Numbered from the stretch's first letter, positions 1 to 56,589 are shown. The stretch: 63,641 nucleotides of DNA from a virus (IMGVR_UViG_3300015203_000009:1-63641); one strand, 5' to 3'. Notes: generated from the letters alone by a model not told the origin. Made by a program: numbers and translations.

Positions 1-146
1 CGCTGACCTCCGCGGCGCTAACCTCGGCGGCGCTAACCTCTGCGGCGCTAACCTCTACGGCGCTGACCTCCGCGGCGCTAACCTCGGCGGCGCTAACCTC
101 TGCGGCGCTAACCTCTACGGCGCTAACCTCGGCGGCGCTAACCTCG
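1..146 (+). repeat. 15-bp tandem repeat encoding A(D/N)LxG pentapeptides
   Basis: About 10 units of cgct(g/a)acctcNNcgg; bases 1-60 are repeated exactly at 61-120. Confidence 0.95.
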
Positions 147-493
147 CTCCCCAGCAGCTGGCCGAACTCTCGATTGTCCCGAGTGAAGGCAGCTTTGTTG
201 GATGGAAGAAGTGCGACGGCGACATTATTGCCAAGTTGCTTATTCCAGAGGACGCCAAGCGCCAAAACGCCACAGGACGCAAGTGTCGTGCTGAATATGT
301 GCAGGTGCTCGCGCTCTATAAGGGCAAGAAGGAAGTGGAAGGACCTGCCTTTACGCACGCGCACGGTCCGAGGATAGAATACGCCGTGGGGGCCACAGTG
401 AAGCCGGACAGCTTCAACGAAGACCGATTTGACGAGTGCTCGCACGGTATTCACTTTTTCATCACTCGCATCGAGGCCGAGAATTACGTCTAA
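2..493 (+). CDS. Pentapeptide-repeat protein with C-terminal DUF5758-like domain (5' truncated)
   Basis: Frame 2 reads ADLRG-ANLGG-ANLCG-ANLYG repeats, then GSFVGWKK...LLIPEDAKR...RKCRAE...ECSHGIHFFITR.EA. Confidence 0.85.
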   Translation, partial: ADLRGANLGGANLCGANLYGADLRGANLGGANLCGANLYGANLGGANLAPQQLAELSIVPSEGSFVGWKKCDGDIIAKLLIPEDAKRQNATGRKCRAEYVQVLALYKGKKEVEGPAFTHAHGPRIEYAVGATVKPDSFNEDRFDECSHGIHFFITRIEAENYV

Positions 494-497
494 TTTT

Positions 498-1040
498 ATG
501 TCCCAAGAAAACACCTCAGTGAAAGATGCAGCCGAGCAGTCGGCTGCCACCATCGTCCGCGAAATTCGCGGGCTCATCCGGGCCACGCCGCCCTCGTTCA
601 CCAAGCAGCGGAAGCTGCTTCAGGCCAAGCTCCGTCTCCTGACGTCCGCGCGCCCGCCACTCGACATGAAGAAATTCACGGAAGAGCTGCACAAGGGACA
701 GATTGCGTTTCGCACATCTGGACTCGCCGTCCGCCGACTGGAAAAGATACACGCCCACGCGAAGCATCTTATTCGTTCTCGGCTCCCGCGCGCCTTCGAC
801 GGCAAGGTGATAGATACGCGCAAGGACACGCGCGGCCAGTTGTATTTTGAAGCGGCCAACGGGCAGGCCCTGAGCGCTTCCCGCATGACGGGAGTTCGGT
901 TGGCCAACTACTCCGCGCGTCGCGTCACGAGCGGACGCGTCAATCACGCGCTGCGTCGCCGCATCGTCGCCCCGCTCGGCAACCCCGTCCTCGTCGACAT
1001 CGTCAAGCGCGAGCTCGCTTTGAACGCGACGCGCGCCTGA
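498..1040 (+). CDS. Hypothetical basic protein
   Basis: ATG at 498 just after the upstream stop; TGA overlaps the next ATG. Confidence 0.7.
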   Translation: MSQENTSVKDAAEQSAATIVREIRGLIRATPPSFTKQRKLLQAKLRLLTSARPPLDMKKFTEELHKGQIAFRTSGLAVRRLEKIHAHAKHLIRSRLPRAFDGKVIDTRKDTRGQLYFEAANGQALSASRMTGVRLANYSARRVTSGRVNHALRRRIVAPLGNPVLVDIVKRELALNATRA

Positions 1041-1381
1041 TGAGGCCCGCTGTGTTGTTCCTCTGCCTCGCCTCGCTCCTGAGAGCGGACACCGGGACAG
1101 CCAGCTATGTAAACCCGGGGCTCGCCGGCCACCTCACCGCCAGCGGCGAGCCCTTTAACCCCCGACAACTCACAGCTGCCTCTTACAAGTATTTCAAACG
1201 CTATGTCCGCATCACCAATCCCAGCAACGGCAAATCTGTTGTCGTCTGGGTGAATGACAAAGGACCCAACCGCAGGCTGCATCGAATCATTGATCTTTCC
1301 CCAGCCGCCTACAATCAGATAGCCCAACCTTTCTATATTAGAAAGGGAACACTTTTTGTATCCATCCAGCCACTACCATGA
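1040..1381 (+). CDS. RlpA-like double-psi beta-barrel protein (lytic transglycosylase family) with signal peptide
   Basis: GTASY...G.LTASGE.F....LTAA...VRITN..NGKSVVV.VNDKGP...RIIDLS.AA. Confidence 0.85.
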   Translation: MRPAVLFLCLASLLRADTGTASYVNPGLAGHLTASGEPFNPRQLTAASYKYFKRYVRITNPSNGKSVVVWVNDKGPNRRLHRIIDLSPAAYNQIAQPFYIRKGTLFVSIQPLP

Positions 1382-1827
1382 GCGACAAATTCAAAACCCA
1401 CGACAGATTTTCCGCCGGCACCGCCAAGCTCCTCGCCGAGCGTCGGCCGGGGCAGACGTTCTCCGCCCAAGAAATCGCCGACGCCTGCGGCGTCCACAAA
1501 CGCACAGTCCAATATATCGAGGCCAAGGCCCTCCGCAATTTTGCGAGAGGACTGCAGGCCCTGTGTCCCGACGTCATCAACGACGAGATGAGTGCTGGCA
1601 AGCGCGAGGGGTTTTTAAGGACGCTCAATACAAGCCCCTACGACCGGAGCAAGCCGACGGCCCTCACGCTGCTCCGCCGCGACGCGCGCCACACCCACTT
1701 CGCCCGCGCGCGCCTGAACGTCGGCGGCGAGGCGAGCGTCGAAAGCACCAATCGGAAGCTGCGCGAAGCCGACCCGGTGAGATATACCTTTTCCGGCGCG
1801 TTGAAAAATTCCCTCGCCACCGCCTAA
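1378..1827 (+). CDS. HTH protein (sigma region-4-like)
   Basis: FSAQEIADACGVHKRTVQYIEAKALRN. Confidence 0.65.
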   Translation: MSDKFKTHDRFSAGTAKLLAERRPGQTFSAQEIADACGVHKRTVQYIEAKALRNFARGLQALCPDVINDEMSAGKREGFLRTLNTSPYDRSKPTALTLLRRDARHTHFARARLNVGGEASVESTNRKLREADPVRYTFSGALKNSLATA

Positions 1828-1841
1828 GACATCGCTACTTT
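1814..1841 (+). promoter_or_regulatory. Class A promoter TCGCCA-N16-TACTTT
   Basis: One of six copies with identical 16-nt spacing; lies just before GTG 1851. Confidence 0.7.
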
Positions 1842-1850
1842 GTCCGTCCA

Positions 1851-2072
1851 GTGAAAAAGCTTTTCCTGATTTTCCTTTGGGCGCTTGCGGCCGGCTGCGT
1901 TGCCACGACGCCCATCACGCCTCTCCACTGTGTTGCGGTGGAGCATCTGGACAATGGGGAGACGTGGGAAATCTGGCAGCGCGCCGACGGCTCCCGCTAT
2001 GTCAAGGTCATCAGCACCAGCGGGAAAATCTCTTACATCGAAATCGTCTACCTCGATGAACCCGAGCGTTGA
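1851..2072 (+). CDS. Small lipoprotein
   Basis: GTG start; MKKLFLIFLWALAAG-C signal peptide and lipobox. Confidence 0.7.
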   Translation: MKKLFLIFLWALAAGCVATTPITPLHCVAVEHLDNGETWEIWQRADGSRYVKVISTSGKISYIEIVYLDEPER

Positions 2073-2250
2073 GAAAATTGTGGCGGCCGGGGCCAAGCGC
2101 CAGCGCAAGCTGGCCGCATGGATGCTGACGCCGGCCGCGCGCCACGTCCCGCAGGAAGCCAAGCACCAAAAGATGCTCCGCGCCACCAGCAAGCCAACGC
2201 AGGATATTCCCCCGCCCGACTTCGACCCTTTCTTCGACGATGTTGCCTGA
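2056..2250 (+). CDS. Hypothetical protein
   Basis: MNPSVEKIV..., packed between neighbouring genes. Confidence 0.55.
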   Translation: MNPSVEKIVAAGAKRQRKLAAWMLTPAARHVPQEAKHQKMLRATSKPTQDIPPPDFDPFFDDVA

Positions 2251-2257
2251 ATTTCCC

Positions 2258-2797
2258 ATGACGCTGCTCGACAGCATTCGAGCGCTCGCTCGTCGCCGCG
2301 CTCGGGGCAACTACCATCTGGAGCAGGATTTCTTCTCGGCCGGACTTTATGGCGCAGCAAAAGCGATGCATCATTACGATGCCTCGAAAAACCCGAATTT
2401 CCCCGCCTACGCCTACCGCTTCGCGAGCTTTGAGATGCTGGCTTGGTGGTCCGCTTACGCGTCCCCGATGACGCGCGGCCAGCGGGACAAGATGAAGCGC
2501 GACAGCACCCCAGCGCCTGTCTCCATGACGAGCCTCGACCTCTTGATGGGGGAAGGGTTTGACATCATCGCCGACGAGCAGATTGGGCCGGACGAGCACG
2601 CCGCGCGCCTCTTGGAATGGGGCGTCGAGATAATGAAGCTTCCGCCGCTGGAAGCCTTCGTCATTTTCCAGCGCATCGTCAACGAGAAGAGCTGCACCGA
2701 GCTCGCCGCTTTTCTGGACGTGACGCGTCAGCAAATATTTTTAACACAGCAACGGGCCATCGAGAAGCTCCGCGTCTCCTGCGCTCACCTTCAATGA
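2258..2797 (+). CDS. Sigma-70-family factor (regions 2 and 4)
   Basis: DFFSAGLYGAAKAMHHYDASKNPNFPAYAY (region 2); KSCTELAAFLDVTRQQIFLTQQRAIEKLR (region 4). Confidence 0.8.
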   Translation: MTLLDSIRALARRRARGNYHLEQDFFSAGLYGAAKAMHHYDASKNPNFPAYAYRFASFEMLAWWSAYASPMTRGQRDKMKRDSTPAPVSMTSLDLLMGEGFDIIADEQIGPDEHAARLLEWGVEIMKLPPLEAFVIFQRIVNEKSCTELAAFLDVTRQQIFLTQQRAIEKLRVSCAHLQ

Positions 2798-2994
2798 AAC
2801 CTTGGTTTTCTGACACGGAAAAGGAATGGAAGTGCTCTTTCGGCAAATACGAGGTGTACTATTCTCGTCGCAGTCGGAACGGCATCATGGGCCGATTTGG
2901 AGGAGGCTGGAATTGGAAGCTGGGCTTTCAGGCCTCCGGTAAAACTCTTCTTCTAAGCCTGCTGGTTTCTGAACTCACCATCACTAGGAAATGA
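2794..2994 (+). CDS. Hypothetical protein
   Basis: MKPWFSD..., ATGA overlaps at both ends. Confidence 0.55.
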   Translation: MKPWFSDTEKEWKCSFGKYEVYYSRRSRNGIMGRFGGGWNWKLGFQASGKTLLLSLLVSELTITRK

Positions 2995-3203
2995 CCCACA
3001 CCACCACCTACCGCACCCTCGAAGACCCCAGCGAGCTCATTGTCGCCGGGGACGAATTCAAGCCCGACTACGTCGACGACACCCAGTGGCGGCCCTGCGA
3101 CCTGATGATTGGCCACCGGCTCCGCGACTTGAGAAATTCCCGCGTCTCGATACGGCGCGTCATTGCCCGCTCACCCACAACCACCGAAATTGCCCCCGAA
3201 TGA
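2991..3203 (+). CDS. Hypothetical protein
   Basis: ATGA-coupled ORF. Confidence 0.6.
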   Translation: MTHTTTYRTLEDPSELIVAGDEFKPDYVDDTQWRPCDLMIGHRLRDLRNSRVSIRRVIARSPTTTEIAPE

Positions 3204-3502
3204 GACTATCAACAGAAGTAGCAAAGCTCGAAGAAGCACACAAGGATTTGGAGCGCAAGCTCGCCAACGCCCGACCGCCCGGGAACGTGGTGCTCGTGAA
3301 TCGCGAGGGTTTCTCGAAGGCCTATACGATAAATACCAACACTTGCTACGGAGAAGTCACCCGCATCTACCAGATGGCCGAGCACCAGTGTGATTTTGCC
3401 ACCGTCTGCTCTCCCAGTGACCACAGTAGCCTCAAGACCCGTGATTTCCGTTCTACCGGACGGCGCGACTTTTGGAACCGTGAAATATTGGAGGAAATTT
3501 AA
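3200..3502 (+). CDS. Hypothetical protein
   Basis: MRLSTEVAKL..., ATGA-coupled. Confidence 0.6.
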   Translation: MRLSTEVAKLEEAHKDLERKLANARPPGNVVLVNREGFSKAYTINTNTCYGEVTRIYQMAEHQCDFATVCSPSDHSSLKTRDFRSTGRRDFWNREILEEI

Positions 3503-3503
3503 C

Positions 3504-3641
3504 ATGGACGCATCCACCAACGACCCCGCTGTCAGCATTCCCACGCCCGTTCCGGCCGCCGCCAAGGCGATTCCCAAGACGGACGTGCTTTTCATTCTCA
3601 TCTGCGTGGCCCTACTCGCGTGGGCCATTGCCTCCTTCTGA
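3504..3641 (+). CDS. Small membrane protein
   Basis: MDASTNDP... with hydrophobic C-terminus VLFILICVALLAWAIASF. Confidence 0.55.
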   Translation: MDASTNDPAVSIPTPVPAAAKAIPKTDVLFILICVALLAWAIASF

Positions 3642-3841
3642 TGCCCGCCAACACATCAAGCAGCCAAGACAAGATTATTAATAACGCTGTCCGAGAAGCG
3701 AGCACTCTTAGCGACACCGTCTCTGAATTGCTCGCCATCATCTACGAACTCGACGACAAGCTATCCAAGGCCATGGAACGTATTTCCGAGCTTGAGGGAG
3801 AAGTAGTTACGCTCGAAGACAAAATACGGGACAAGGAATGA
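3641..3841 (+). CDS. Small coiled-coil protein
   Basis: MPANTS...; heptad pattern in the C-terminal half. Confidence 0.55.
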   Translation: MPANTSSSQDKIINNAVREASTLSDTVSELLAIIYELDDKLSKAMERISELEGEVVTLEDKIRDKE

Positions 3842-3917
3842 CGGAAGAGGAAGCCCTAAAACTGTGGCTGGAAGACGCGCTTGAAATGAACCGACGCAAT
3901 TTTCTTCGCCACACTAA

Positions 3918-5090
3918 ATGACCAGCCTTCGTAATTATCAGGAGGAAGCCACCGTGTTTCTTTTCCCGCGCAACCGGGGCTGCGTTGTCGCGCCGGCCGG
4001 CTCGGGAAAAACGGTGATTGGCGCGCGGGCGGCTGCCTATGCGGCGTGCCGGGTGTGGGCGAAGGAAAAGCGCGAGGTGAAGCTGGCGTGGGTATGTGGG
4101 ACATTGGAGCAAAAGATGCAGGGAATAAAGGCCCTGCAGGCGGAAGAGTGCTCGGTGCCGGTGGACATTCGCGTCGAGTGCTATGCGGCCAAACTCGATT
4201 TGAGTGATGTGGATATTGTGATCGTGGACGAGTGCCATCACGTACCCTCAGACACCCTAGGGGAGATGCTCTCCAAGCTGAAAACGGACGCAATTTTGTA
4301 CGGGCTCACGGCCACGCCGACTCACAGCGACCCGCTGAGAAATGCCTTGGTTGATCTGACATTCAAGGAATTTTTTGTCATCGACCGGGCGCGCGTTGAA
4401 GCCTCAGGCCATTTGATAAAAGGAAAAGCCTTCATGTGCGACGTGGATGTGCCGGGACAATTCAACGCCGAGATAGAAGCCAAAACGCAGTATGAACTAG
4501 CCATTCGCATGCGCCGAATGCCGTGGTTGCCCCGCTTCGAACAGGAGCGGCGCATCAAGAATCAAATGACACAGGAGATGGTGCAAGCCAACGAAGCTCG
4601 CAATGCTTCCGCTGTCTTCTTGACCCAGCGCGAGGCGGCGGCCGGGGAGAGTGTTCTTGTGCTGGTGGCTTCCATCGAACACGGGAAGAAGCTAGTGGAA
4701 CGGATGCCGGGCAGCGAGATTGTGAACTCCAAGCTTCCAAAGAAAAAACGTGCCCAGTTGGTGGAGGATTTTCGTAGCGGGGCTTTGCGCATTCTCGTTG
4801 CAACCAGCCTGTTGGATGAGGGGGCCGATTTTCCAAGAGCCTCGCGTCTGATACTTGTTGCGGGCGGACGCTCCGCTGGAAAATTGGAGCAGCGCGCTGG
4901 GCGCGTGCTTCGCCCATTCGAAGGCAAAAACGGCGGCGTTATTTACGATTTTCTCGACCGGGGGGCGACGTTTGCGCACGCACAGGCGAAAGCGCGGATG
5001 AGAGTGTACGAGACGCTTGGATATGCCCCCGAAATTATTTTTACAAATTCCCTCGCCACATCACAAACACCTACTATTGTCAACCCTTAG
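3918..5090 (+). CDS. Superfamily 2 (DExH) helicase
   Basis: LRNYQ, APAGSGKT, DECH, TATP, LLDEGAD, QRAGRVLR. Confidence 0.93.
   Translation: MTSLRNYQEEATVFLFPRNRGCVVAPAGSGKTVIGARAAAYAACRVWAKEKREVKLAWVCGTLEQKMQGIKALQAEECSVPVDIRVECYAAKLDLSDVDIVIVDECHHVPSDTLGEMLSKLKTDAILYGLTATPTHSDPLRNALVDLTFKEFFVIDRARVEASGHLIKGKAFMCDVDVPGQFNAEIEAKTQYELAIRMRRMPWLPRFEQERRIKNQMTQEMVQANEARNASAVFLTQREAAAGESVLVLVASIEHGKKLVERMPGSEIVNSKLPKKKRAQLVEDFRSGALRILVATSLLDEGADFPRASRLILVAGGRSAGKLEQRAGRVLRPFEGKNGGVIYDFLDRGATFAHAQAKARMRVYETLGYAPEIIFTNSLATSQTPTIVNP
5053..5080 (+). promoter_or_regulatory. Class A promoter TCGCCA-N16-TATTGT
   Basis: Motif copy at the end of the helicase gene. Confidence 0.65.
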
Positions 5091-5151: not shown

Positions 5152-5772
5152 ATGGAAGAAGACAAAATTTCAACGGCAGGAGATACGTGCGACGGAGGCG
5201 TACTCCATTCGCCAATTTCTACCTGTGGCGCGCCTCCCGCCGTTGTTTATCGTCGCGGAGACAAGCACCCCACAGAAGACAAAGTATTCTGGGAATACGC
5301 TCCTGCTGGGGAGCTTCGTTGGTCTAGTCGCCTAAAATACGAAGCCTATCGAGCAACGATAGTAAAACTACCCGGAACGTGGAAAAAGAGAAACCGAGCG
5401 AAGTGTCGTGCATCAGGCAAGCGCTGCTATTACAGGCACAGATTAAAAAGGCTAGCCGATAGGAGAGAATGGGCAAAACGAAATCCAGAGCGCATAAAGT
5501 TTTTAGCTCGCCGCCACATGAGAAAGTATCCGGAGAGATACGCTTTTCATGCAGCTAAAAGAAGGGCGACGATATTAAAAGCAACAGATGTCTCGACTTC
5601 AAAACTGCAGATTAAGGTTTTTTACGATGCTGCGGCCAGAGTATCTCGGTGTTTGGGTATAAAATTCCACGTTGACCACATCATTCCTCTATCTCGTGGA
5701 GGAAGGCATCAGCAATCAAATCTTCAGCTTTTACCAGCCACACTCAATCATCGCAAAGGCAACCGAATTTAA
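5152..5772 (+). CDS. HNH homing endonuclease
   Basis: FHVDHIIPLSRGGRH..SNLQLL....N..K; more AT-rich than flanks. Confidence 0.88.
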   Translation: MEEDKISTAGDTCDGGVLHSPISTCGAPPAVVYRRGDKHPTEDKVFWEYAPAGELRWSSRLKYEAYRATIVKLPGTWKKRNRAKCRASGKRCYYRHRLKRLADRREWAKRNPERIKFLARRHMRKYPERYAFHAAKRRATILKATDVSTSKLQIKVFYDAAARVSRCLGIKFHVDHIIPLSRGGRHQQSNLQLLPATLNHRKGNRI

Positions 5773-6993: not shown

Positions 6994-7845
6994 ATGTCTG
7001 AATCAAAGATTAGTTTTGCCAAGGTGGCTGGGGCTGGCTCCAGCGAGCCTGTTCCCGCTGAACAAAAAGCCACGGAAGCCAATGCCTCCCTCGCCGGCCA
7101 AGCGCCGGCAGCACCTTCAGGTGCGACGACGGCGCTCGCGGCTCCGCCGCAGCAGAGCCACCTTCCCACGCGTTTCCTTGGCGGAGACGAGGAGGACGAC
7201 GACGGCGACCGCTCGGACGTCCGCCTGCCGCGCCTGAATATCGTGCAGGGGCTCAGCGGAGCCGACTTGAAAGGCATCAAGAAGCCCGATGGCACGATTG
7301 CGCCGGACGGTTCCTTGATTTTCAAGAAGGCCCTCTACATCCCGCAGCCGGCGACGATTGTTGTCGCAGCCTTCACCAAGCCCGAGTATTCGGAGAAGGC
7401 GCTCAAGTTTGGGGAAGGCCCGAAGCCGCGCACTTTCCAGACACTGGAGGAAGTGATTAACGCGGGTGGCACCGACAAGTGGAAATACAGCCGCGAAAAC
7501 CGGGAGGACCCGACCAAGCTCCCGTGGTTTGTGAAAATCACCACGGCTCTTGTTCTCATCAAGAAGTGGGAGGGCATCAGCGATGCCGACGCCGAGCACT
7601 TCACGGCCGTCGCCGAGGACGGCACGGCCTTCGCGGCCGCCGTTCTCACCGTCAAGAGCACGGGCTTCCAAGGGTTCTATGTTCCGCTGAAGAGCGAACA
7701 GGCCCAAGGCGTCCTGATGCACGGCTTCTACACCCGCTACGTCAAGCTCACGACGAAGCAGGACAAGGCCTTCACGCCCGTCGTTTCCATCCAAGAACCC
7801 ACCAGCGACGCCGTCCGCAAGCTCGCTATTTCCATTCGCGCTTAA
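6994..7845 (+). CDS. Putative single-stranded DNA-binding protein
   Basis: Lies between nuclease and polymerase; DVRLPRLNIVQGLS motif; A-rich leader. Confidence 0.55.
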   Translation: MSESKISFAKVAGAGSSEPVPAEQKATEANASLAGQAPAAPSGATTALAAPPQQSHLPTRFLGGDEEDDDGDRSDVRLPRLNIVQGLSGADLKGIKKPDGTIAPDGSLIFKKALYIPQPATIVVAAFTKPEYSEKALKFGEGPKPRTFQTLEEVINAGGTDKWKYSRENREDPTKLPWFVKITTALVLIKKWEGISDADAEHFTAVAEDGTAFAAAVLTVKSTGFQGFYVPLKSEQAQGVLMHGFYTRYVKLTTKQDKAFTPVVSIQEPTSDAVRKLAISIRA

Positions 7846-7904
7846 TGTATCGTATAACGAGCATTAAGCCGCTAAATCCGGCTTAATGTCTCGTATATGA
7901 TACA
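7840..7904. other. Compound palindrome / long imperfect hairpin
   Basis: GCTTAATG..CATTAAGC and ATTAAGCCG..CGGCTTAAT arms; direct repeat GCTTAATGT(A/C)TCGTATA. Confidence 0.7.
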
Positions 7905-7937
7905 CTATCCCGCCTTAACGTCCAAACTATCGAACAC

Positions 7938-8458: not shown

Positions 8459-9034
8459 ATGCCAACCGGAATTTATCAACGAACTGTAGTCGGTCGATTG
8501 CGAAAAGTTATTCGGCCTCCGTACGAGAAGGACGGGGTGCTGCATATCCCGCTGACGCGCGGCATGGTGGCTTTGGCCTCTCCAGAGGACCGAGGACAGT
8601 TGGAGAAGTATAATTGGTCGGCTCAATTTTGTGACGGGAATTACTACGCCGCGCGCCGGTCATTGGGTGAGAATGGGAAAACAGGACTGGTGCTCATGCA
8701 CCGCCAACTGCTCGGGCTCAAAAAGGGCGAGCTCGGCGACCACGCAGACCGAAACAGGTTGAACAACCAAAGATATAACCTCCGGCTGGCTACCTTTTCT
8801 GAGAATGGATGTAACAGAACACCCTCTCAAAAGCCTAGAAAACTCGGGACAAAAATCGGCGTGTACTACCTACCCAGATTGAATCAAAGTGCTCCGTGGT
8901 CCGCGCGCGTAGTCAAGCACGGCATATCGTATTATCTGGGATATTTCGAAACCGAAACCGAGGCAGCAATCGTGCGTGACGAAGCAGCAAAAAGGCTGCA
9001 CAGAAAATTTGCAGTGTTAAATTTTCCCACATGA
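8459..9034 (+). CDS. HNH-AP2 homing endonuclease
   Basis: LMHRQLL...DHADRNRLNNQRYNLR; AP2 domain W.A......YLGYFETE.EAA...D.AA..LH..FA.LNFP. Confidence 0.9.
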   Translation: MPTGIYQRTVVGRLRKVIRPPYEKDGVLHIPLTRGMVALASPEDRGQLEKYNWSAQFCDGNYYAARRSLGENGKTGLVLMHRQLLGLKKGELGDHADRNRLNNQRYNLRLATFSENGCNRTPSQKPRKLGTKIGVYYLPRLNQSAPWSARVVKHGISYYLGYFETETEAAIVRDEAAKRLHRKFAVLNFPT

Positions 9035-11220
9035 ATCGAACCATAGCAGCGGATTATGAGACGCCTTACGGAGATGACTTCTCCGTTGTTGGCCTCGGTT
9101 ACGACCGCTACGCACGCGACCCCCGTTGCGAGCCTTATCTTTTAAGTGTTTGTGACGGGTCGGAGGTGTGGGCAGGCCATCCCCGAGATTTTAATTTTTC
9201 TTCGCTGGAAGGAGCGAAGCTCGTGAGCCACAACAGCGCATTCGAAGAGGAAATTTCTTTAGGCGCGACGGAACGCGGGCTGTTCACTGTTCCGGGCCTT
9301 AAACGCTGGGGCATGGACCACTGGTTTTGCTCGTTGAACATGAGCGCTTACTTATGGAATGTGCGAAGCCTCAAGGATGCAGTGAAAGTGGGCTTGGACG
9401 TGGACCTTTCAAAGGGGGTTCGTGACCGCGCTAAAAACAAAAGCGTCGAGGACATGAAGCGGGAAGGTTGGTACGACGACATGCTCAAATATTCCAAGGA
9501 AGATGCCATCAACTGCTGGCGGCTCTGGGACAAGCACAATTCGAAGTGGCCGGAGTTTGAGCGCCGCCTGTCGCGCCTGACGATAGATCAGGGAAGGCAT
9601 GGCGTGCGCATCGACCTCGAAGCTCTCGCATTCGGCATCGAGCAGATGCAGAAGGTGATTTTCACCGCCACCTCCAACCTGCCATGGATCGCGCGCGGCA
9701 ACAAGCCCGCCTCGCCCATCGGCATCGCCGAGGAATGTCGGCTGGTGGGCATCCCGTGCCCGCCCGTGAAGGCGCACAACGCCGAGGCTGCCGCCGAGTG
9801 GGAGGAGATTTACGCCCCGAAGCACAAATTCGTGCTCGCTCTGCGTAATCTGCGCAAGGCGAAGAAAGCCCTCGCAACCTTGGAGACCATCAAGCTTCGG
9901 CTGCGCCCGGACGAGACGATGGCGTTCAGCCTGAAGTATGCCGGCGCGCACACGCTGCGCTGGTCGGGCGACAGCGGCGTCAACATGCAGAACCTCGCCA
10001 AGGAACCGATGTTGATTGACCAGAATACGTCTTTTGTTTTCGACCCGAAAACCATCCAGCCGATGGTGGAGGAATTTTCCAAGGGGCATGCGGGCGAGCG
10101 GGCGCACGGGACATTGGCAAATGGCACCACCTTCTTCGATTTTAGGGGACTCATCATCGCGCGGCCCGGCAAAAAGATTGCGGCCGTGGATGAGGGCCAG
10201 ATTGAGCCGCGCTGCCTCAATTGGATAGCGGGCAACACGGCGATGCTGAAGATGATGGCGGAAGGATTCGCCATCTACGAGGCACACGCGCGTGAGACAA
10301 TGGACTGGAAGGGGGGCGTCCTGAAGGACGAGAACAAAAAAATGTATTCCCTCGCCAAGGCGCGCGTATTGTCCGGCGGCTATCAGGTGGGGTGGAAAAA
10401 ATTTATTGTTGCTGCCATGACAATGGCGCAGCTCGACATCACCGAGGGCGACGCCGATTTCGCACTGGCTGTTTCTGTCGACAAAAAAATCCATCGCCGC
10501 CAGAAGAACGCCAAGGGCAAGTGGGAATATCTCAGCGCGCCAGAAAACATCACCGAACCCATCAGCAACACCTTTCTTCGGCCCACGGCAGACTTCGGCG
10601 CGCAGGCGGAAGAGTGCGTTTTTCTCTGGAAGGAAAAAACGGACAAGCGCACGGGTGAAATTTCGAAAAAACTCATTGCACTCCCCGTGTACGGCATGCG
10701 CTCCCGCATCACCATCCAAGAATACCGCGCCTCCAACCCTTTGATTGTGGCCGTCTGGAACAAATTTAAGGATGTCTTGAAAAATTCCGTGGGCGGCGAC
10801 CTTGTCGTGGAAGGCCCGCACGGGGGCACCCTCACCTACCGCGACATCCGGGCCTCGCGCGTGAAGCAGAAGGATGATGACGGCGAGGAATACGAAACGA
10901 CCCAATACACTTATCAGGACGGCTGGAAGCGTTCGAAGCTCTATGGCGGTCTGATGACAGAAAATCTCATCCAGTGGGTGGCGCGCATGGTGTTTGCGGA
11001 ACACATGCTGACACTGCACGACATGCTGAAGGCGGAGGACGAGACGCAGGGTGTGCTATTCTCGGCTCACGACGAGGCCGTGGCCGAGATCAATGACCCT
11101 GGCGAGAATGCAGCGGCCCGGATAAAGCAGCTTGAGAACCTGTTTTCGATTACCCCGATCTGGATGCCCGGGCTGCCGCTGAAAGCCGAAGGTCACATCA
11201 AGGGCCGCTACTTCAAATGA
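9031..11220 (+). CDS. DNA polymerase family A with 3'-5' exonuclease
   Basis: ExoI DYET, ExoII HNSAFE, ExoIII Y...D; TLRWSG, NMQNL; motif A DEGQIEPR; motif B AKARVLSGGY; motif C HDE. Confidence 0.92.
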   Translation: MNRTIAADYETPYGDDFSVVGLGYDRYARDPRCEPYLLSVCDGSEVWAGHPRDFNFSSLEGAKLVSHNSAFEEEISLGATERGLFTVPGLKRWGMDHWFCSLNMSAYLWNVRSLKDAVKVGLDVDLSKGVRDRAKNKSVEDMKREGWYDDMLKYSKEDAINCWRLWDKHNSKWPEFERRLSRLTIDQGRHGVRIDLEALAFGIEQMQKVIFTATSNLPWIARGNKPASPIGIAEECRLVGIPCPPVKAHNAEAAAEWEEIYAPKHKFVLALRNLRKAKKALATLETIKLRLRPDETMAFSLKYAGAHTLRWSGDSGVNMQNLAKEPMLIDQNTSFVFDPKTIQPMVEEFSKGHAGERAHGTLANGTTFFDFRGLIIARPGKKIAAVDEGQIEPRCLNWIAGNTAMLKMMAEGFAIYEAHARETMDWKGGVLKDENKKMYSLAKARVLSGGYQVGWKKFIVAAMTMAQLDITEGDADFALAVSVDKKIHRRQKNAKGKWEYLSAPENITEPISNTFLRPTADFGAQAEECVFLWKEKTDKRTGEISKKLIALPVYGMRSRITIQEYRASNPLIVAVWNKFKDVLKNSVGGDLVVEGPHGGTLTYRDIRASRVKQKDDDGEEYETTQYTYQDGWKRSKLYGGLMTENLIQWVARMVFAEHMLTLHDMLKAEDETQGVLFSAHDEAVAEINDPGENAAARIKQLENLFSITPIWMPGLPLKAEGHIKGRYFK

Positions 11221-11885
11221 ACAATTTTTGCGCAGGTAGTATAAAGAACACGCCGGGCTTCCAGCCCGGAGATGGCGGTGCAAATCCGACCTCTGCGCTC
11301 CATTTCAAAAAAGAAGACTATTGGGTTAAATCAGTGGATTTGAGACTGGCTCAAGCTATGGTGGTCAGACTCCACTACTCCCGTGGCGGGTCTAACACTG
11401 CCTGCTACACCCACGGACTTGTGCACAAACCGTCAGGAAAAGTTGTTGGGGTTGCTTGGTGGCTTCCGCCGACTCGCGTAGCGTGCGAGTCCGTGGACAG
11501 AGAAAACTGGAAAAAAGTTTTGTCACTCACGCGTCTGGTTATTGAGCCTGATGTTCCCCAGAACGCTTGTAGCTTTTTGTTGGCTCATTCAGTGCGGTTG
11601 ATTCGAAAAGAAGGGCGCTTCGGCGCTCTCGTCACCTACGCGGACGAAAGTCAAGGCCACACTGGAACCATCTACCGGGCTGCTGGGTGGGAATATGTTG
11701 GTCGCACCGGACCTTATCCGCGCTGGGTGGATGCGGAAGGTCGTCAACGCGCTCCTAAGGCTACCAAAAATCGCACCAAGGCCGAGATGGAAGCCCTCGG
11801 GTACGTCAAAACTGGGAGTTTCTTCAAACACAAATTCGTACTCCGGGCGAACCCCAATTGTAAAAATCTCCTCGCCAGTAGCTAA
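11217..11885 (+). CDS. mom: Mom-like (GNAT-fold) DNA adenine hypermodification enzyme
   Basis: HYS, LTRL...D.P.N..SFLL, VTYAD..QGHTGTIYRAAGW.YVG; coupled to the polymerase gene. Confidence 0.8.
   Translation: MNNFCAGSIKNTPGFQPGDGGANPTSALHFKKEDYWVKSVDLRLAQAMVVRLHYSRGGSNTACYTHGLVHKPSGKVVGVAWWLPPTRVACESVDRENWKKVLSLTRLVIEPDVPQNACSFLLAHSVRLIRKEGRFGALVTYADESQGHTGTIYRAAGWEYVGRTGPYPRWVDAEGRQRAPKATKNRTKAEMEALGYVKTGSFFKHKFVLRANPNCKNLLASS
11230..11302 (+). tRNA. Non-canonical tRNA-Gly(TCC) nested in the 5' end of the mom-like CDS
   Basis: GCGCAGG-TA-GTAT-AAAGA-ACAC-G-CCGGG-CTTCCAG-CCCGG-AGAT-GGCGG-TGCAAAT-CCG(A)CC-TCTGCGC-T-CCA. Confidence 0.85.
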
Positions 11886-11899
11886 ATTCCTGATACACT
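11872..11899 (+). promoter_or_regulatory. Class A promoter TCGCCA-N16-TACACT
   Basis: 11 nt upstream of the primase ATG at 11911. Confidence 0.7.
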
Positions 11900-11910
11900 A
11901 CCCCTGCTTA

Positions 11911-14133
11911 ATGCCGCTCTTTGCCCTCCGTAACCTGTCCTCGTCCGCCGTTGAGCCGTGCATGCCGTGGACCTACACCCAAGCCGCCCCCGACCATGTC
12001 AAAGGAAAAGAAAACAAGAAGGCGCGCGACAAATGGATCAATTGTCCGGAAACACAGAGCCAGTGTTATTCGGCGTTCGAAGGTGTTAACGCTGCGCTCC
12101 GTATCTCCGAGCCCAAGATTGGCGGAGAGGAAGGCAATCCTCCCCTCAAGCTGCACGCCTTCGTCGCGGACATTGACTGCCCTGTCTCCCAGCAGGAACT
12201 TGCGACCGGGATTGGTCGGCTTGATTTTAAACCCAACTACTACGAAATCACGCTCTCAGGGAATGCGCGGCTCGTCTGGCTCTTTGAAGCCCCCATTTCC
12301 TTTCCCAATCGTCGCTTTGCCGTAGAGTTTTTGAGACTAGCCCTTGGGCGATTGCACCCGGACCACGTGGCGGCGGGCTTCGACAAGCCGGCATGGGAAG
12401 AGCCAAACAGATATTACACCAACAGCGGCGAGTGGCTGCAAATAAGTGCTGAAGCACGAATTCCGAAGGAGCTGCTGGACGGCTGGGTGGTGGAGGTGGC
12501 GGAGAAGCACGTGTGGAGAAAAGACAAGGGAGCAATTGATCTTCCCCTCCCGGTCGTCGAGGCCGAGCTGCTGAAGAAGTGGTCCCAGATGAACTGGCCG
12601 GGTGACTTCGTGGAAGGCTCGCAGGGTCCGTCGTTCTGGCTGGAAGGCTCGACGTCGCCGAAAAGTGCTGTGGTGAAGCCCACGGGACTTTTCACCTTCT
12701 CCGCCCACCAATCGAAGCCGTTCTACAGTTGGTCCGACTTGCTTGGCAAGGATTTTGTCGAGAAGCACGCCGCCGAGCTGATGGGCAAGGCCGTCGAAAA
12801 CATTTATCACGACGGCAGCAAATACTATCGGACGGATGGACACGGCTCGTGGAAGAATTTCACAAAAGAAGACGTAGTTTTGCACCTCACCACCGACCGG
12901 GGACTCTCCGCTGTCAAGGACGGCGGGGCCTCCGAAATCAACCGAGCCCTCTGCTACATCCAGAATTGGCAGGGCATCGACGGCGCGGCCCCCTTTGTCT
13001 TCCAGCCCCCGGGCATCATCAAGAAGCAGGGTAGGACGTTCTTGAATACGCATACGCGGAAAGTGTTGAGGCCTTCCGATGAGAAAGCCGTCTGGGGGCC
13101 GAACGGAAATTTCCCCTTCATTTCCTCCCTGCTGGACGGTCTCTTCCATCCGGACAGCCTCCCCGCCAATCCCAAGGACTACCTGCTCGCGTGGCTCGCG
13201 CGTTTCTATCGCGGGGCCTACGAATTCAATCTGGAAAGCGGCCAGAGCCTTTTCTTCTTGGGCGCTCCCGGCATCGGCAAGACGTTTCTGTCGCAGGGCC
13301 TTTTTCCCCACCTGATGAGCGGCGGCACGGGCGCAGAGGCCTACCTGATGGGCGAGAGCGATTTCAACAGCGAGCTGTTCGAGACAGCCTTCTGGACGAT
13401 TGACGACAATTCCGCCACCGTCGACAACACCACACATCGCAAATTCTCGGCCATGGTGAAGAAAATGGCCGCCAACACTGTCTTCCAATACCATGCCAAG
13501 TTTCGCATTCCCTGTTCCGTCGACTGGCTGGGCCGGGTGTTCATCACCGCCAACGCTGACGAGCAATCTGCGCGCATCGTGCCCGATCTTTCCATCAACA
13601 TTCTCGATAAGATGCACATTTTCCGGGGCGCGGATAAGCCGGCGGTGGTGTTTCCAGACAAGCGCGGTTGCGAGGCTATCATCCGCAACGAGACGCCTTT
13701 TCTGGCGCGCTATCTCCTCGACTACGTGGCTCCGGCTTACGTCGTGGGCACCTCGCGCTTTGGCGTGAAGAGCTACCACGAGGTGTCGCTGATGAAGGTG
13801 GCCGAACAAAGTTCCGATACGGCCAGCTTCCGCGAGGTGATTGAGCACTGGCGCACGGTGTATTTCCAAGAGAAGCCCGATTTGAAATTCTGGCGGGGCT
13901 CGGCTTACGAGCTCCTGATGGAATTCCACAAGGATGCCTACGCCTCGGCGGCCGGCCTGCGCGGCCTCAATGCCGGCACGGTGGGGAGAAGCCTGATGGC
14001 GGTGAAGGCCAAGGGCATGCCCATCGAGGTGGTGGGAGGAGAAAGATTTCGCGAGTGGATAGTGTACAAGGATGACAAAATCCCAGCGGAGACACCCATT
14101 GTCTCCAAGGCCAATTCAACTTTCAGCAAATAA
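11911..14133 (+). CDS. Primase-helicase (N-terminal primase-like domain, C-terminal SF3/DUF5906-type ATPase)
   Basis: ADID and TLSGNARLVW; Walker A GAPGIGKT, FNSEL, WTIDD, FITAN; start reassigned to ATG 11911. Confidence 0.8.
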   Translation: MPLFALRNLSSSAVEPCMPWTYTQAAPDHVKGKENKKARDKWINCPETQSQCYSAFEGVNAALRISEPKIGGEEGNPPLKLHAFVADIDCPVSQQELATGIGRLDFKPNYYEITLSGNARLVWLFEAPISFPNRRFAVEFLRLALGRLHPDHVAAGFDKPAWEEPNRYYTNSGEWLQISAEARIPKELLDGWVVEVAEKHVWRKDKGAIDLPLPVVEAELLKKWSQMNWPGDFVEGSQGPSFWLEGSTSPKSAVVKPTGLFTFSAHQSKPFYSWSDLLGKDFVEKHAAELMGKAVENIYHDGSKYYRTDGHGSWKNFTKEDVVLHLTTDRGLSAVKDGGASEINRALCYIQNWQGIDGAAPFVFQPPGIIKKQGRTFLNTHTRKVLRPSDEKAVWGPNGNFPFISSLLDGLFHPDSLPANPKDYLLAWLARFYRGAYEFNLESGQSLFFLGAPGIGKTFLSQGLFPHLMSGGTGAEAYLMGESDFNSELFETAFWTIDDNSATVDNTTHRKFSAMVKKMAANTVFQYHAKFRIPCSVDWLGRVFITANADEQSARIVPDLSINILDKMHIFRGADKPAVVFPDKRGCEAIIRNETPFLARYLLDYVAPAYVVGTSRFGVKSYHEVSLMKVAEQSSDTASFREVIEHWRTVYFQEKPDLKFWRGSAYELLMEFHKDAYASAAGLRGLNAGTVGRSLMAVKAKGMPIEVVGGERFREWIVYKDDKIPAETPIVSKANSTFSK

Positions 14134-14939
14134 TGTACTACGGCACGTCAGAAAATCCGCCCGACCAAATTGTCTTCGCTCCCGGGGAAGAGAAAATCCT
14201 GTGGCGTGCCTATCGAAAAAGCGGGGACGTCGAGGCCCTGCGCAAACTCGTCCTGCGCTATCTGCCCTACGCCTTTTCCATTGCCAGCAAGTTCAAGGGG
14301 CCGCGCCTGTCTTTCGAAGATGCCACCTCGGCGGCCAACGCCGGACTCATGGAAGCCATTTCCACGTTCGTTCCGAGCAAGGGCAAGTTTATTGTGTATT
14401 GTTATTGGCCCATCCGCCGGCACACCTTGGAAGCACTCCTAGCAACATATCCGGTTAAATTGGGGTCTAGGATGAGAAAGAACATCCGCAAAAAAGACCT
14501 GTCGGGCAACAACAGCGACCTGAACGAGGCCTTTGCCCGCCTCGGCACCTACACCCCGCTGCAAAGTGGCGACACCTCCGTCGGCTATTCACAGGGCGCG
14601 GGCACTGTGGTGAAAGATAGCCAGAGCGTCGACCACGTGCATTGGAGCCCCGTCGTGCAGGCCTTGGGGCCGCAGCCGACGGCGGACGTCGAGGACTTTG
14701 CCCCCTCGCATGTCGAGGCCGTCGAGCGGGCGGATGAAGCCCTTGAAGTCCGACACTTTATAGAGACAGATGTGTTCACCGCGATTGAAAGGGCCGTCCT
14801 GAAAGCCCGCCATTATGTGGAGCCTCCCGAGGGGCTCGAACACTTGGCGAAAAGGTTGAATCAACCCAAACGAAAATTGTCCCTCGCCTACGACAGTGCG
14901 CTCCTCAAATTGAAGACACGATTTAATGCCCAAGGTTAA
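14133..14939 (+). CDS. Sigma-70-family factor (second copy)
   Basis: GDVEALRKLVLRYLPYAFSIASKF...FEDATSAANAGLMEAISTFVPSKGKFIVYCYWPIR; C-terminal region-4-like HTH. Confidence 0.82.
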   Translation: MYYGTSENPPDQIVFAPGEEKILWRAYRKSGDVEALRKLVLRYLPYAFSIASKFKGPRLSFEDATSAANAGLMEAISTFVPSKGKFIVYCYWPIRRHTLEALLATYPVKLGSRMRKNIRKKDLSGNNSDLNEAFARLGTYTPLQSGDTSVGYSQGAGTVVKDSQSVDHVHWSPVVQALGPQPTADVEDFAPSHVEAVERADEALEVRHFIETDVFTAIERAVLKARHYVEPPEGLEHLAKRLNQPKRKLSLAYDSALLKLKTRFNAQG

Positions 14940-56514: not shown

Positions 56515-56589
56515 TGGGTGCGGGGGTCTGAATTGAACAGACGGCCTGAGCGTTATGAGCGCACTGCTCTACCACTGAGCTACCCCGCA
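56515..56589 (-). tRNA. tRNA with CAT anticodon (Met or Ile2)
   Basis: TGCGGGG-TA-GCTC-AGTGGTA-GAGC-A-GTGCG-CTCATAA-CGCTC-AGGCC-GTCTG-TTCAATT-CAGAC-CCCCGCA-C-CCA. Confidence 0.9.

Follow-up and report, generated by a model that had tools for sequence, protein, structure and literature searches.

The Mom enzyme of phage Mu makes N6-carbamoylmethyl-adenine, and its glycine donor is reported to be host Gly-tRNAGly (PMC13219725), as an earlier note on the DNA studied here had stated. This donor was established only recently, and Mom was described as scavenging from the host pool. According to the same report, any of the three tRNAGly isoacceptors of Escherichia coli is accepted by Mu Mom (PMC13219725), which in principle makes a private donor unnecessary. 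Donors set apart for a non-ribosomal aminoacyl transferase are described in Staphylococcus, where the tRNAGly(UCC) species NP1, NP2 and NEW supply the FemXAB peptidoglycan transferases. In the genes for these non-proteogenic tRNAGly, the T-loop sequence TTC is replaced by TGC or TGT (PMC7826273), in agreement with the altered T loop cited in the earlier note, and because of this replacement the tRNAs have no pseudouridine 55. Their T-stem pairs are reported to weaken EF-Tu binding (PMC12256121). The set of bases that confers glycine identity in bacteria is given as U73, G1–C72, C2–G71, G3–C70, C35 and C36 (PMC9976931).

The window analysed here, a 63,641-nucleotide stretch of viral DNA (IMGVR_UViG_3300015203_000009:1-63641), contains a tRNA-Gly(UCC)-like RNA on the same strand as, and within codons 5–29 of, a Mom-like ORF (Table 1). 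The earlier note had proposed this position and a cloverleaf with TCC anticodon, U73, CCA, a D loop lacking GG, a UGCAAAU T loop and a bulged A; every one of these elements is found in the sequence, and the ORF belongs to the Pfam family Mom (PF25680). ARAGORN calls a tRNA-Gly(tcc) at 11229–11298. The Rfam tRNA model RF00005 scores the RNA at 31.4 bits, 2.4 bits above its gathering score of 29 (E = 3.2e-6 for the whole 63.6-kb record), and its D stem is a weak one. In the minimum free energy fold the acceptor stem, the anticodon arm and the bulged T arm all form, at -28.4 kcal/mol compared with -21.75 ± 2.86 for shuffled sequences (z = -2.33), 5 of 200 of which fold equally well.

Table 1. Coordinates of the Mom-linked RNA, the Mom ORF and the upstream gene in the window.
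Feature	Position	Strand	Basis or detail
tRNA-Gly(UCC)-like RNA, 73 nt including encoded CCA	11230..11302	+	ARAGORN, Rfam, R1, family covariation
Acceptor stem	11230-11236 / 11292-11298	+	G1-C72, C2-G71, G3-C70, C-G, A-U, G-C, G-U
D arm, short and weak	11239-11251	+	one A.C mismatch; 5-nt loop AAAGA without GG
Anticodon stem	11253-11257 / 11265-11269	+	loop CUUCCAG
Anticodon TCC	11260-11262	+	C32 (11258) and G38 (11264) able to pair
T arm GGCGG / UGCAAAU / CCG(A)CC	11274..11291	+	T loop 11279-11285; bulged A 11289; G replaces U55
Discriminator U73 (11299) and encoded CCA (11300-11302)	11299..11302	+	read directly
Mom-family GNAT ORF, 222 aa	11217..11885	+	Pfam PF25680, PHROG 1384, PDB 8bv8, AF2/Foldseek
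Conserved Mom N-terminal motif FKKEDYWVK	11304..11330	+	begins 1 nt past CCA
R106 codon, counterpart of Mu Mom R111	11532..11534	+	alignment to 8bv8; column invariant in A4
S119 codon, counterpart of Mu Mom S124	11571..11573	+	alignment to 8bv8
Family-A DNA-polymerase-like ORF, upstream	9031..11220	+	PHROG 17, 9e-46; stop overlaps Mom ATG

All six elements of the glycine identity set are present in the window RNA, and the bases that the earlier note had named as determinants of bacterial GlyRS are those of the published set (PMC9976931). U8 and A9 directly follow the 5' strand of the acceptor stem, the variable loop has four nucleotides (AGAU), and the 7-nt anticodon loop includes U33 as well as the potential C32–G38 pair. 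The canonical elbow, in which G18G19 is joined to U55 C56, is missing both here (D loop AAAGA, G at position 55 of the T loop) and throughout the family described below. The regular 5-bp T stem that serves as the EF-Tu contact surface is likewise absent, with A11289 bulging between pairs 51–63 and 50–64. Non-proteogenic tRNAGly are distinguished by a UCC anticodon, a TGC or TGT T loop and T-stem pairs other than G49–U65 and G51–C63, as described for the staphylococcal genes (PMC7826273, PMC12256121); the window RNA has UCC, a UGC T loop, G49–C65 and C51–G63, plus the bulge.

The ORF matches Pfam Mom PF25680 with E = 3.9e-28 (98.9 bits, cut-off 27.1), PHROG 1384 with 7.8e-35 and Mu Mom (PDB 8bv8) with E = 4e-6. 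Its AF2 model (pLDDT 91.5) has 8bv8_A as the top Foldseek match (E = 1.5e-11, TM 0.79) and aligns to it over 198 columns, and the Pfam match spans profile positions 2–157 of 202. The catalytic arginine and serine columns are both invariant among 37 Mom sequences (alignment A4); Mu numbering here is the 8bv8 chain index plus 9, and the 8bv8 chain has an alanine at S124. An HTH-like insertion of Mu Mom, at about residues 175–209, is required for activity. Sequence and modelled structure together identify the window protein as a Mom enzyme, with predicted activity.

The Mom ATG at 11217 overlaps the stop codon of the polymerase-like ORF as ATGA, and the next in-frame ATG, GTG or TTG is the GTG at 11334, codon 40. 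The Pfam match begins only at residue 35, after the RNA in codons 5–29. In relatives, translation starts fall 3–14 codons ahead of the FKKEDYWVK motif; a downstream start in the window (GTG 11334 or ATG 11358) was rejected, as it would remove this motif, which is kept in 12 of 12 relatives examined. A protein search with residues 1–60, covering the RNA-encoded peptide and the Mom start, yielded no candidate, and window positions 10900–12200 had no DNA match among cultured phages. Among sequencing runs, the window was traced to a single soil-metagenome DNA run, which may be its source, and to no RNA run.

Further members of the RNA family were sought in viral and metagenome contigs with two DNA patterns taken from the window RNA, without reference to Mom. 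The 107 family-like copies recovered (105 loci, 74 distinct sequences) include 97 with a same-strand Mom ORF that adjoins the RNA or overlaps it. A frameshifted Mom C terminus is present at L173, and no Mom was found in the available DNA, despite room for it, at the family-like RNAs L105/L179/L202, L177 and L187; the ORFs beside L105, L177 and L187 could be assigned to no Pfam family, and none matched the Mom profile. Control loci were free of Mom, with none at 12 pattern hits dropped by eye and none at 30 loci having fewer than six acceptor pairs. We define the family (model R1) by a cloverleaf of the form GCG...CGC-U-CCA, an N-N-C-C-A loop on a 6-bp stem, a GG(C)GG/UGCAAAU/CC(G)ACC T arm, and a Mom ORF on the same strand in contact with the RNA. 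The window RNA belongs to R1 by this definition and scores 80.4 bits, being itself among the R1 training rows.

Standard tools largely miss the family, which was previously unlisted: ARAGORN detects 3 of 82 members, 1 of 20 loci reaches the RF00005 gathering score, and Rfam lists no family of its own for the Mom-linked RNA. The window RNA is about 0.7 identical to many of the other 81 RNAs and has no clear closest relative. In a cultured phage, Psychrobacter phage vB_PmaS_Y8A (OQ059336.1), two tandem unannotated copies of 68 and 69 nt lie past the mom stop, at 7786–7853 and 7858–7926, with Mom at 7125–7778. A blastn search of cultured phages with the 73-nt RNA gave chance-level matches only, and an exact 25-base pattern from the T arm and acceptor had no match in viral contigs. 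An 18-base identity in the T5-like Salmonella phage GSW6 was discarded, since that sequence is not a family member by R1.

Covariation within the family supports the cloverleaf. Its cells are paired in 97.4% of cases, compared with 70.6% in shuffles and 34–47% in slid controls, and 17 of 22 pairs show double changes, giving 435 compensatory cells, a level reached in 0 of 500 shuffles; these shuffle statistics overstate independence because the family sequences are related. The comparative data exclude a chance cloverleaf. Among the identity elements, G1–C72 is kept in 72 of 72 RNAs, C2–G71 in 69 of 72 and G3–C70 in 61 of 68; of the two anticodon positions, C36 is invariant (82 of 82) and C35 nearly so (81 of 82). 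U73 is likewise invariant (82 of 82), and 80 of the 82 RNAs end in CCA and two in CCU, although the near-invariance of U73, CCA, the T loop and the bulge is partly by construction because these were part of the search patterns. The bulged A of the T stem, required by the patterns for most rows, is nonetheless present in all six rows found by the model alone, and pair 51–63 covaries around it (CG 60, AU 7, UA 3, GC 2).

Features needed for decoding, by contrast, are dropped. U33 is kept in only 39 of the 82 RNAs, position 34 is U in 56, A in 18, C in 2 and G in 1, and pair 32–38 covaries as a Watson–Crick pair (CG 32, UA 17, AU 5, GC 4), closing the 7-nt loop. Position 8 is A in 51 of 82. The D-loop GG is absent, G stands in place of U55, the T stem is bulged, and some copies, including those of the Psychrobacter phage, have no D arm. 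The family thus preserves the identity set but has given up the G18G19/U55 elbow, in many members U33 and the open 7-nt loop, and in some the D arm, a pattern that fits a charged, non-translational carrier.

The RNA lies at the 3' end of mom in 70 instances and at the 5' end in 27. Frame A is open in 64 of the 74 distinct RNAs, compared with 23 and 27 for the other two frames. All 36 RNAs of the 76-nt class have it open, whereas column shuffling leaves it open in 29.8 ± 1.5, and none of 2,000 shuffles reaches 36. Each of the 21 distinct 5'-layout cases has a Mom frame that continues through the RNA without a stop, with an in-frame start 4–43 nt upstream in 19; in the 3' layout the Mom stop falls 4–85 nt past the CCA in 38 of 47 distinct cases. 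Across the T arm the fixed mom frame encodes GGANPT. Judged from these sequences, the mom frame normally reads through the RNA. A single fixed frame would therefore let ribosomes pass from the upstream gene into mom, as in the window, or from mom into the next gene, as in the 3' layout. The locus would be a rare example of a protein gene whose frame runs through the gene of a structured RNA.

We consider it probable, at roughly 0.7, that the window RNA is a dedicated non-translational glycyl carrier for Mom, derived from tRNA-Gly and belonging to a family fused to mom. The RNA would be co-transcribed with mom in a replication-gene operon, and host tRNA-processing enzymes would cut some transcripts to give a CCA-ended RNA of about 73 nt; the flanks have a pyrimidine at -1 and are A/U-rich past the CCA. 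Host GlyRS, recognizing the identity set seen in the sequence, would then glycylate the RNA. Because of its broken elbow (no G18G19, G55), the T-stem bulge at the EF-Tu contact and the closed 32–38 pair, the charged RNA is expected to be a poor ligand for EF-Tu and the ribosome, which would create a pool of Gly-tRNA outside translation. From this pool Mom, a GNAT enzyme, would take glycine and transfer it to adenine N6 in double-stranded DNA to form N6-carbamoylmethyl-adenine, and the modification would protect the phage DNA against restriction; both steps are known for Mu and predicted here. Each transcript would be either translated or processed. The enzyme and private co-substrate unit proposed in the earlier note is supported at the level of sequence.

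A bolder version of this reading is that the RNA is deliberately overprinted in mom. Translation would yield Mom and hand the ribosome on, and cutting would yield the carrier and destroy the message, so that the locus would set its own ratio of enzyme to co-substrate and limit a harmful modifier. The unit would then be a portable module in which Mom has co-evolved to the bulged T arm, a natural orthogonal pair insulated from EF-Tu and the ribosome. We put this forward tentatively and think it on balance improbable.

The earlier note had proposed to look for a covarying cloverleaf with an NCC anticodon, U73 and CCA in the 5' regions of mom homologues; such cloverleaves do occur across the family, but mostly at the 3' end, and the RNA is absent from 12 of the 13 nearest relatives of the window Mom (53–67% identical, including Ralstonia phage C22). 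In a sample of 12 cultured Mom phages that included Mu, no such RNA was seen next to mom. Mom therefore works without the RNA, which, given its absence from 12 of the 13 nearest relatives, is an accessory that some lineages of Mom have and that Mom in general does not require. In addition, releasing the RNA would cut the mom message, splitting the start from the body in the window and removing the stop in the 3' layout, which counts against the donor reading.

In a rival reading the RNA is instead a cis-acting tRNA-like element of the mom message, which would hide or expose the start region or 3' end, or recruit RNase P or GlyRS and so keep a harmful enzyme in check. In favour of this, the RNA is always within the mom ORF or next to it, in the same orientation, the start codon in the 5' layout is 4–43 nt before the RNA or within it, processing and translation of one transcript exclude each other, and Mu has a dedicated translational regulator of mom by annotation, with Com and an RNA hairpin controlling mom translation. 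We nevertheless regard this explanation as unlikely: a fold or cleavage signal needs no C35, C36, U73, G1–C72, C2–G71 or CCA, yet these are the most conserved positions, and an element that occurs at either end of the gene, and as a tandem pair beyond the stop of the Psychrobacter phage mom, is easier to explain as a released RNA than as a start-site switch. That the RNA is a decaying tRNA remnant or a chance cloverleaf without function is scarcely credible. The marginal Rfam score, the weak D stem and the nearest relatives that do without the RNA point that way, but the 74 distinct homologues, in which compensatory changes abound and the functional positions do not vary, contradict it.

An ordinary phage tRNA-Gly that aids translation of GGN codons, and sits beside mom by history only, might look much like the window copy, which ARAGORN and Rfam both call tRNA-Gly and which has U33 and a 7-nt loop. 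Phage tRNA arrays strengthen the resemblance: 12 tRNA-Gly(tcc) in 11 viral contigs have the UGC T loop (UGCAAAU) and no D-loop GG, as do annotated tRNA-Gly of Bacillus phages, so the elbow type alone does not exclude a decoding role. The T stem of the array copies is nonetheless a regular one of 5 bp, and ARAGORN recognizes these copies, which stand among 3–28 other tRNAs and score at most 61 bits with R1, compared with 65–96 for most Mom-linked copies; the bulged T stem sets the latter apart from the array copies inspected. Mom is absent from all 10 other records with array-type UGC tRNA-Gly, whereas 97 of the 107 family-like copies are fused to mom. With U33 in under half of the family, A34 in 18 members, 32–38 paired and the D arm missing in some copies, a decoding role is very unlikely. 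It is just as hard to believe that the RNA serves the phage as a spare tRNAGly, or as a decoy, when host defences attack tRNAGly, for example through acetylation of Gly-tRNAGly by GNAT toxins or blocking of the CCA end by toxSAS enzymes. Recognition by these toxins is reported to depend on U73 and G71 or on the tRNAGly acceptor stem (PMC9976931; bioRxiv 10.1101/2024.07.05.602228), and the family keeps those positions, but this would leave the near-obligate fusion to mom and the loss of decoding features unexplained, and a spare tRNA would have to decode.

If the carrier reading is correct, many environmental phages bring their own glycyl carrier, a tRNA that has shed its decoding features and is joined to the gene encoding the enzyme. 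The RNA would then be a genomic marker for tRNA-dependent DNA hypermodification and a natural candidate for orthogonal tRNA/transferase pairs.

tRNA-shaped segments of longer coding RNAs are known elsewhere. Plant virus RNAs can end in aminoacylatable tRNA-like structures, and mitochondrial transcripts are punctuated by tRNAs; in both cases, as would hold in the window, what becomes of the message is linked to the processing or charging of the tRNA-shaped part. The plant virus elements sit at genome 3' termini and the mitochondrial tRNAs merely separate genes. To our knowledge, none of these elements is traversed in frame by an ORF for the enzyme that would consume it, and we know of none that is a bacterial-type cloverleaf with the glycine identity set.

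On the enzyme side the closest comparison is Mu Mom, which belongs to the same family (PF25680, TM 0.79) and whose R111 and S124 have counterparts in the window Mom; the same donor chemistry is predicted for both. Mu has no tRNA gene and no R1 match and is reported to use any host tRNAGly isoacceptor (PMC13219725), whereas the window carries a donor-like RNA inside the gene. Mu controls mom through Com.

On the RNA side the nearest counterparts are the staphylococcal tRNAGly, which share the UCC anticodon and the TGC/TGT T loop with the window RNA. They are described as charged by the normal GlyRS and used by a non-ribosomal aminoacyl transferase, and the phage RNA would follow the same route. 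The staphylococcal set is chromosomal, lies in tRNA and rRNA operons and feeds the cell wall, whereas the Mom-linked RNAs are encoded by viruses, in frame with the enzyme gene to which they are fused. Unlike their staphylococcal counterparts, the Mom-linked RNAs have a bulged T stem and a closed 32–38 pair; many are without U33 and U8 and some without a D arm, and the acceptor substrate would be DNA in place of peptidoglycan. Common descent of the two groups is unlikely. If the Mom-linked RNAs act as proposed, they would be the first viral counterpart of the staphylococcal cell-wall tRNAs.

The cloverleaf inside the window's mom gene belongs to a conserved family of RNAs that has structural support and is fused to mom in nearly all cases. 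The window Mom matches Pfam PF25680 (E = 3.9e-28), PHROG 1384 (E = 7.8e-35) and, by sequence, the Mu Mom crystal chain 8bv8 (E = 4e-6), which is also the top PDB match of its AlphaFold model (8bv8_A, E = 1.5e-11, TM 0.79; pLDDT 91.5). Residues R106 and S119 align to Mu R111 and S124, which are described as essential (PMC13219725), and both columns are invariant across 37 aligned Mom sequences. Because the Pfam match starts only at residue 35, the RNA, which occupies codons 5–29, lies N-terminal of the enzyme domain. The ATG at 11217 shares the overlap ATGA with the stop codon of the polymerase-like ORF upstream, a packing seen throughout the operon, and no in-frame ATG, GTG or TTG follows until GTG 11334. 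The Mom ORFs of the 12 relatives examined begin 3–14 codons ahead of a conserved [F/L]-R-K-x-D-W motif, which in the window opens 1 base past the CCA. A start downstream of the RNA was rejected, since this N-terminal motif would be lost. The RNA is thus within the mom gene, as the earlier note had placed it.

The tRNA-Gly cloverleaf reported in that note is recovered by direct reading of the sequence, by ARAGORN, which calls tRNA-Gly(tcc), and by the Rfam tRNA model at 31.4 bits, 2.4 over the curated threshold (E = 3.2e-6 for the whole record, which has 63,641 bases and an estimated completeness of 89%). A 7-bp acceptor stem (first pairs G1–C72, C2–G71 and G3–C70), with U8 A9 after the acceptor strand, leads to a short D arm that has one A·C mismatch and whose 5-nt loop lacks GG. 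Beyond the anticodon arm lie a 4-nt variable loop, the T stem GGCGG/CCG(A)CC with its bulged A, the T loop UGCAAAU, and an encoded U73 and CCA. The minimum-energy fold (z = -2.33) contains the acceptor and anticodon arms and the T arm with its bulge.

Features of the window, of other loci and of the RNA family (position counts from the model-based 82-RNA alignment)
Feature	Coordinates	Strand	Details
Window, Mom-family GNAT ORF	11217-11885	+	222 aa; Pfam PF25680, PHROG 1384, 8bv8
Window, tRNA-Gly-like cloverleaf	11230-11302	+	73 nt including encoded CCA
Window, anticodon TCC	11260-11262	+	loop CUUCCAG on 5-bp anticodon stem
Window, bulged A of T stem	11289		
Window, HNH-endonuclease-like ORFs	5152-5772, 8459-9034	+	within replication module
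Window, sigma-factor-like ORF	14133-14939	+	after DUF5906 protein
Window, canonical tRNA-Met(CAT)	56515-56589	-	63.8 bits on Rfam; record's sole other tRNA, strand opposite to the RNA
L023, tandem units	1-3100		ParB-like gene, mom and RNA, twice
L057, family RNA	5261-5336		ends CCU
L060, family RNA	1354-1429		ends CCU
L105 (also L179, L202), family-like RNA	2160-2234		no Mom nearby
L177, family-like RNA	1373-1448		no Mom nearby
L187, family-like RNA	430-504		no Mom nearby
L114, PHROG 645 ORF	2594-3504		directly past RNA; two such ORFs in succession
L092, PHROG 645 ORF	1544-2095		directly past RNA
Psychrobacter phage vB_PmaS_Y8A (L216, OQ059336.1), family RNAs	2390-2530		two in tandem, 68-69 nt, unannotated
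Ralstonia phage C22 (L013), helix-turn-helix-like ORF	3804-3989		61 aa
Position 8			A 51, U 26
Position 33			U 39, G 20, A 14, C 2
Position 34			U 56, A 18, C 2, G 1
C35			81/82
C36			82/82
A37			66/82
U73			82/82; in search pattern
CCA			80/82, CCU in two; in search pattern

A search pattern combining the UGCAAAU T loop with a UCC loop matched 59 viral loci. At 11 of these ARAGORN reports a tRNA-Gly(tcc) with this T loop and no D-loop GG, in 10 of the 11 records within a tRNA array of 3–28 genes, and a Mom profile search of the 11 found Mom in L023 only. The array-type genes (L018, L024, L025, L028, L029, L035, L050, L056, L069 and L072) have G55 and a regular T stem, and the profile search found no Mom in any of these 10 viral-contig records. 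Bacillus phage records also carry array-type tRNA-Gly(UCC) with the UGCAAAU loop, a regular T stem and a D loop lacking GG. R1, a model of the Mom-linked family built from rows that include the window RNA, scores other array tRNAs high as well (L028 tRNA-Thr, 60.7 bits), and the atypical elbow may be widespread among phage tRNAs.

L023 has two divergent mom genes; past each lies a near-identical tRNA-Gly, which the ORF enters. The L023 RNA shares with the window RNA U73-CCA, the CUUCCAG loop and a 6-nt 3′ T-stem strand, and its T stem differs by a compensatory change flanking the bulged A. The two L023 Mom proteins come from different deep clades, yet their RNAs and ParB-like genes hardly differ; G33 is present in one RNA copy.

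A second pattern, requiring the bulge and UCCA, matched 46 viral loci, 101 metagenome stretches and, in a stricter form, 1 genome; some contigs are present in both the viral and metagenome collections. All collected loci together gave 149 instances, with six or more of the 7 acceptor pairs in 119 (81 distinct) and fewer in 30. Removal by eye of 12 loci as not tRNA-like left 107 instances at 105 loci, with 74 distinct sequences. ARAGORN detects 3 of 82 family RNAs, and Rfam at gathering thresholds returned one tRNA match and no other family for 20 family loci.

Covariation was counted over 72 distinct RNAs on a hand-written cloverleaf. Standard pairs fill 97.4% of cells, versus 70.6% after shuffling and 34–47% with slid partners. 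Two-sided changes occur in 17 of 22 pairs, with 435 compensatory cells, matched by 0 of 500 shuffles; helix 1 served as a filter, and the search patterns already contained the T arm, U73 and CCA. The D stem, anticodon stem, 32–38 pair and 51–63 pair covary though not selected for. Watson–Crick covariation at 32–38 (CG 32, UA 17, AU 5, GC 4) leaves a 5-nt loop N-N-C-C-A.

In the same alignment G1–C72 is kept in 72/72, C2–G71 in 69/72 and G3–C70 in 61/68. The family's kept positions coincide exactly with the bacterial glycine identity set as given in PMC9976931, and the positions lost are those for decoding and the tRNA elbow. This pattern is what would be expected of an RNA that is glycylated but unused on the ribosome. 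In the two RNAs that end in CCU a CCA-adding enzyme would have to repair the 3′ end.

A Mom HMM built from 12 sequences and run on stop-to-stop ORFs around the 107 instances found a same-strand Mom ORF abutting or overlapping the RNA in 97, with the RNA at the 3′ end of mom in 70 and at the 5′ end, as in the window, in 27. Among the ten others, L107, L108, L150, L158, L168, L189 and L213 have 37–302 nt of contig on one side of the RNA; L173 encodes a frameshifted Mom C terminus (hhalign probability 95%). No Mom was found in the contigs of L177 and L187, the latter with 429 nt upstream and 3.5 kb downstream of the RNA. As controls, Mom was found in 0 of the 12 loci removed by eye and in 0 of the 30 with fewer than six acceptor pairs. 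The latter group contains RNAs that R1 scores as family-like (L105/L179/L202, L123, L140 and L204; 47–60 bits), so Mom-less family relatives exist. The RNAs of L105, L177 and L187 score 58–61 bits; ORFs through or beside them match no Pfam family and no Mom profile, and RNAs of this type may have a different partner enzyme. In the cultured phage vB_PmaS_Y8A both RNA copies lack any D arm and lie, in an interval that GenBank leaves without annotation, between mom (annotated as a hypothetical protein) and the small terminase gene.

In the window's mom frame, here called frame A, the T arm reads GGC GGU GCA AAU CCG ACC and encodes GGANPT. This frame is stop-free in 64 of the 74 distinct RNAs, against 23 and 27 for the other frames. 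It is open in 36/36 RNAs with the commonest gap pattern, a count that column shuffles keeping paired columns together (29.8 ± 1.5) reach in 0 of 2,000 cases, although relatedness inflates this contrast. In the 5′ layout the Mom frame crosses the RNA open in 21/21 distinct cases (frame A in 19). An in-frame start codon precedes the RNA by 4–43 nt in 19/21, often after a Shine–Dalgarno-like run; 11 have a further possible start no more than 30 nt past the CCA and 10, the window included, have none. In the 3′ layout (47 distinct cases) the Mom stop codon lies in frame A 4–85 nt past the CCA in 38, within the RNA in 8 and ahead of it in 1. The following gene begins 3–35 nt past the CCA in 37/47, and in 28/47 the mom stop and the next start overlap or are no more than 13 nt apart. 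Since the RNA-encoded peptide falls at opposite protein ends in the two layouts, it is probably a passenger. We read the open frame as tight operon packing, in which ribosomes would have to traverse the RNA for translational coupling. Position -1 is a pyrimidine in 64/82 RNAs and A/U content after the CCA is 0.65, versus 0.48 for the loci; such flanks would be compatible with tRNA processing and are not evidence of it.

In a maximum-likelihood tree inferred by quick search from 78 Mom sequences the 3′-layout genes form two deep clades (19 and 30 rows; SH-aLRT 96 and 99), and the 5′-layout genes sit on long branches scattered over the tree. The gene past the RNA in 10 3′-layout loci is the small terminase subunit in 5, ParB-like in 2, of a PHROG labelled RNase E in 1 and without assignment in 2; a ParB-like gene is often upstream of mom. 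The 'RNase E' label of PHROG 645, seen at L114 and L092, is possibly not meaningful, and these ORFs may alternatively encode a packaging protein.

The window's well-supported clade (n = 14) comprises the window, 11 relatives lacking the RNA and, as sister, the 5′-layout pair L091/L151. The tree would accommodate either several losses or a single re-acquisition, and RNA similarity favours neither. Among the 13 closest-relative loci (12 viral contigs at 45–70% identity, and C22 at 63%) ARAGORN calls no tRNA next to mom, and a permissive Rfam search of 10 of them returned nothing. The family model finds an RNA after mom in L012 (84.6 bits) and scores at most 15.9 bits in the other 12. C22, the nearest relative in culture, has its helix-turn-helix-like ORF between the polymerase gene and mom, where the window has the RNA. 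In 12 cultured Mom phages (Mu, C22 and ten diverse database matches) the RNA is neither beside mom nor elsewhere in the genome; a T4-like Vibrio phage among them has ordinary tRNAs only (41–44 bits), about 98 kb from mom.

Over-expressed Mom is harmful. The nearest rival explanation takes the RNA to be a purely cis-regulatory tRNA mimic. That leaves the conserved identity nucleotides and CCA without explanation. The most likely function, predicted from sequence with a probability of roughly 0.7, is that of a dedicated glycyl carrier for Mom.

Among the published full texts searched, no other paper ties Mom to a phage tRNA; the 2023 Mom preprint mentions no tRNA gene, adjacency or EF-Tu. The main text of PMC13219725 mentions no phage-encoded tRNA, tRNA-like element or mom gene neighbourhood. 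According to that paper, Mu Mom moves glycine from Gly-tRNAGly onto adenine N6 of double-stranded DNA and does so with each of the three E. coli isoacceptors; the paper describes it as drawing on a host resource (PMC13219725). EF-Tu reads T-stem pairs 49–65, 50–64 and 51–63. Staphylococcal non-proteogenic tRNAGly species are described as having TGC or TGT T loops and binding EF-Tu weakly (PMC7826273, PMC12256121).
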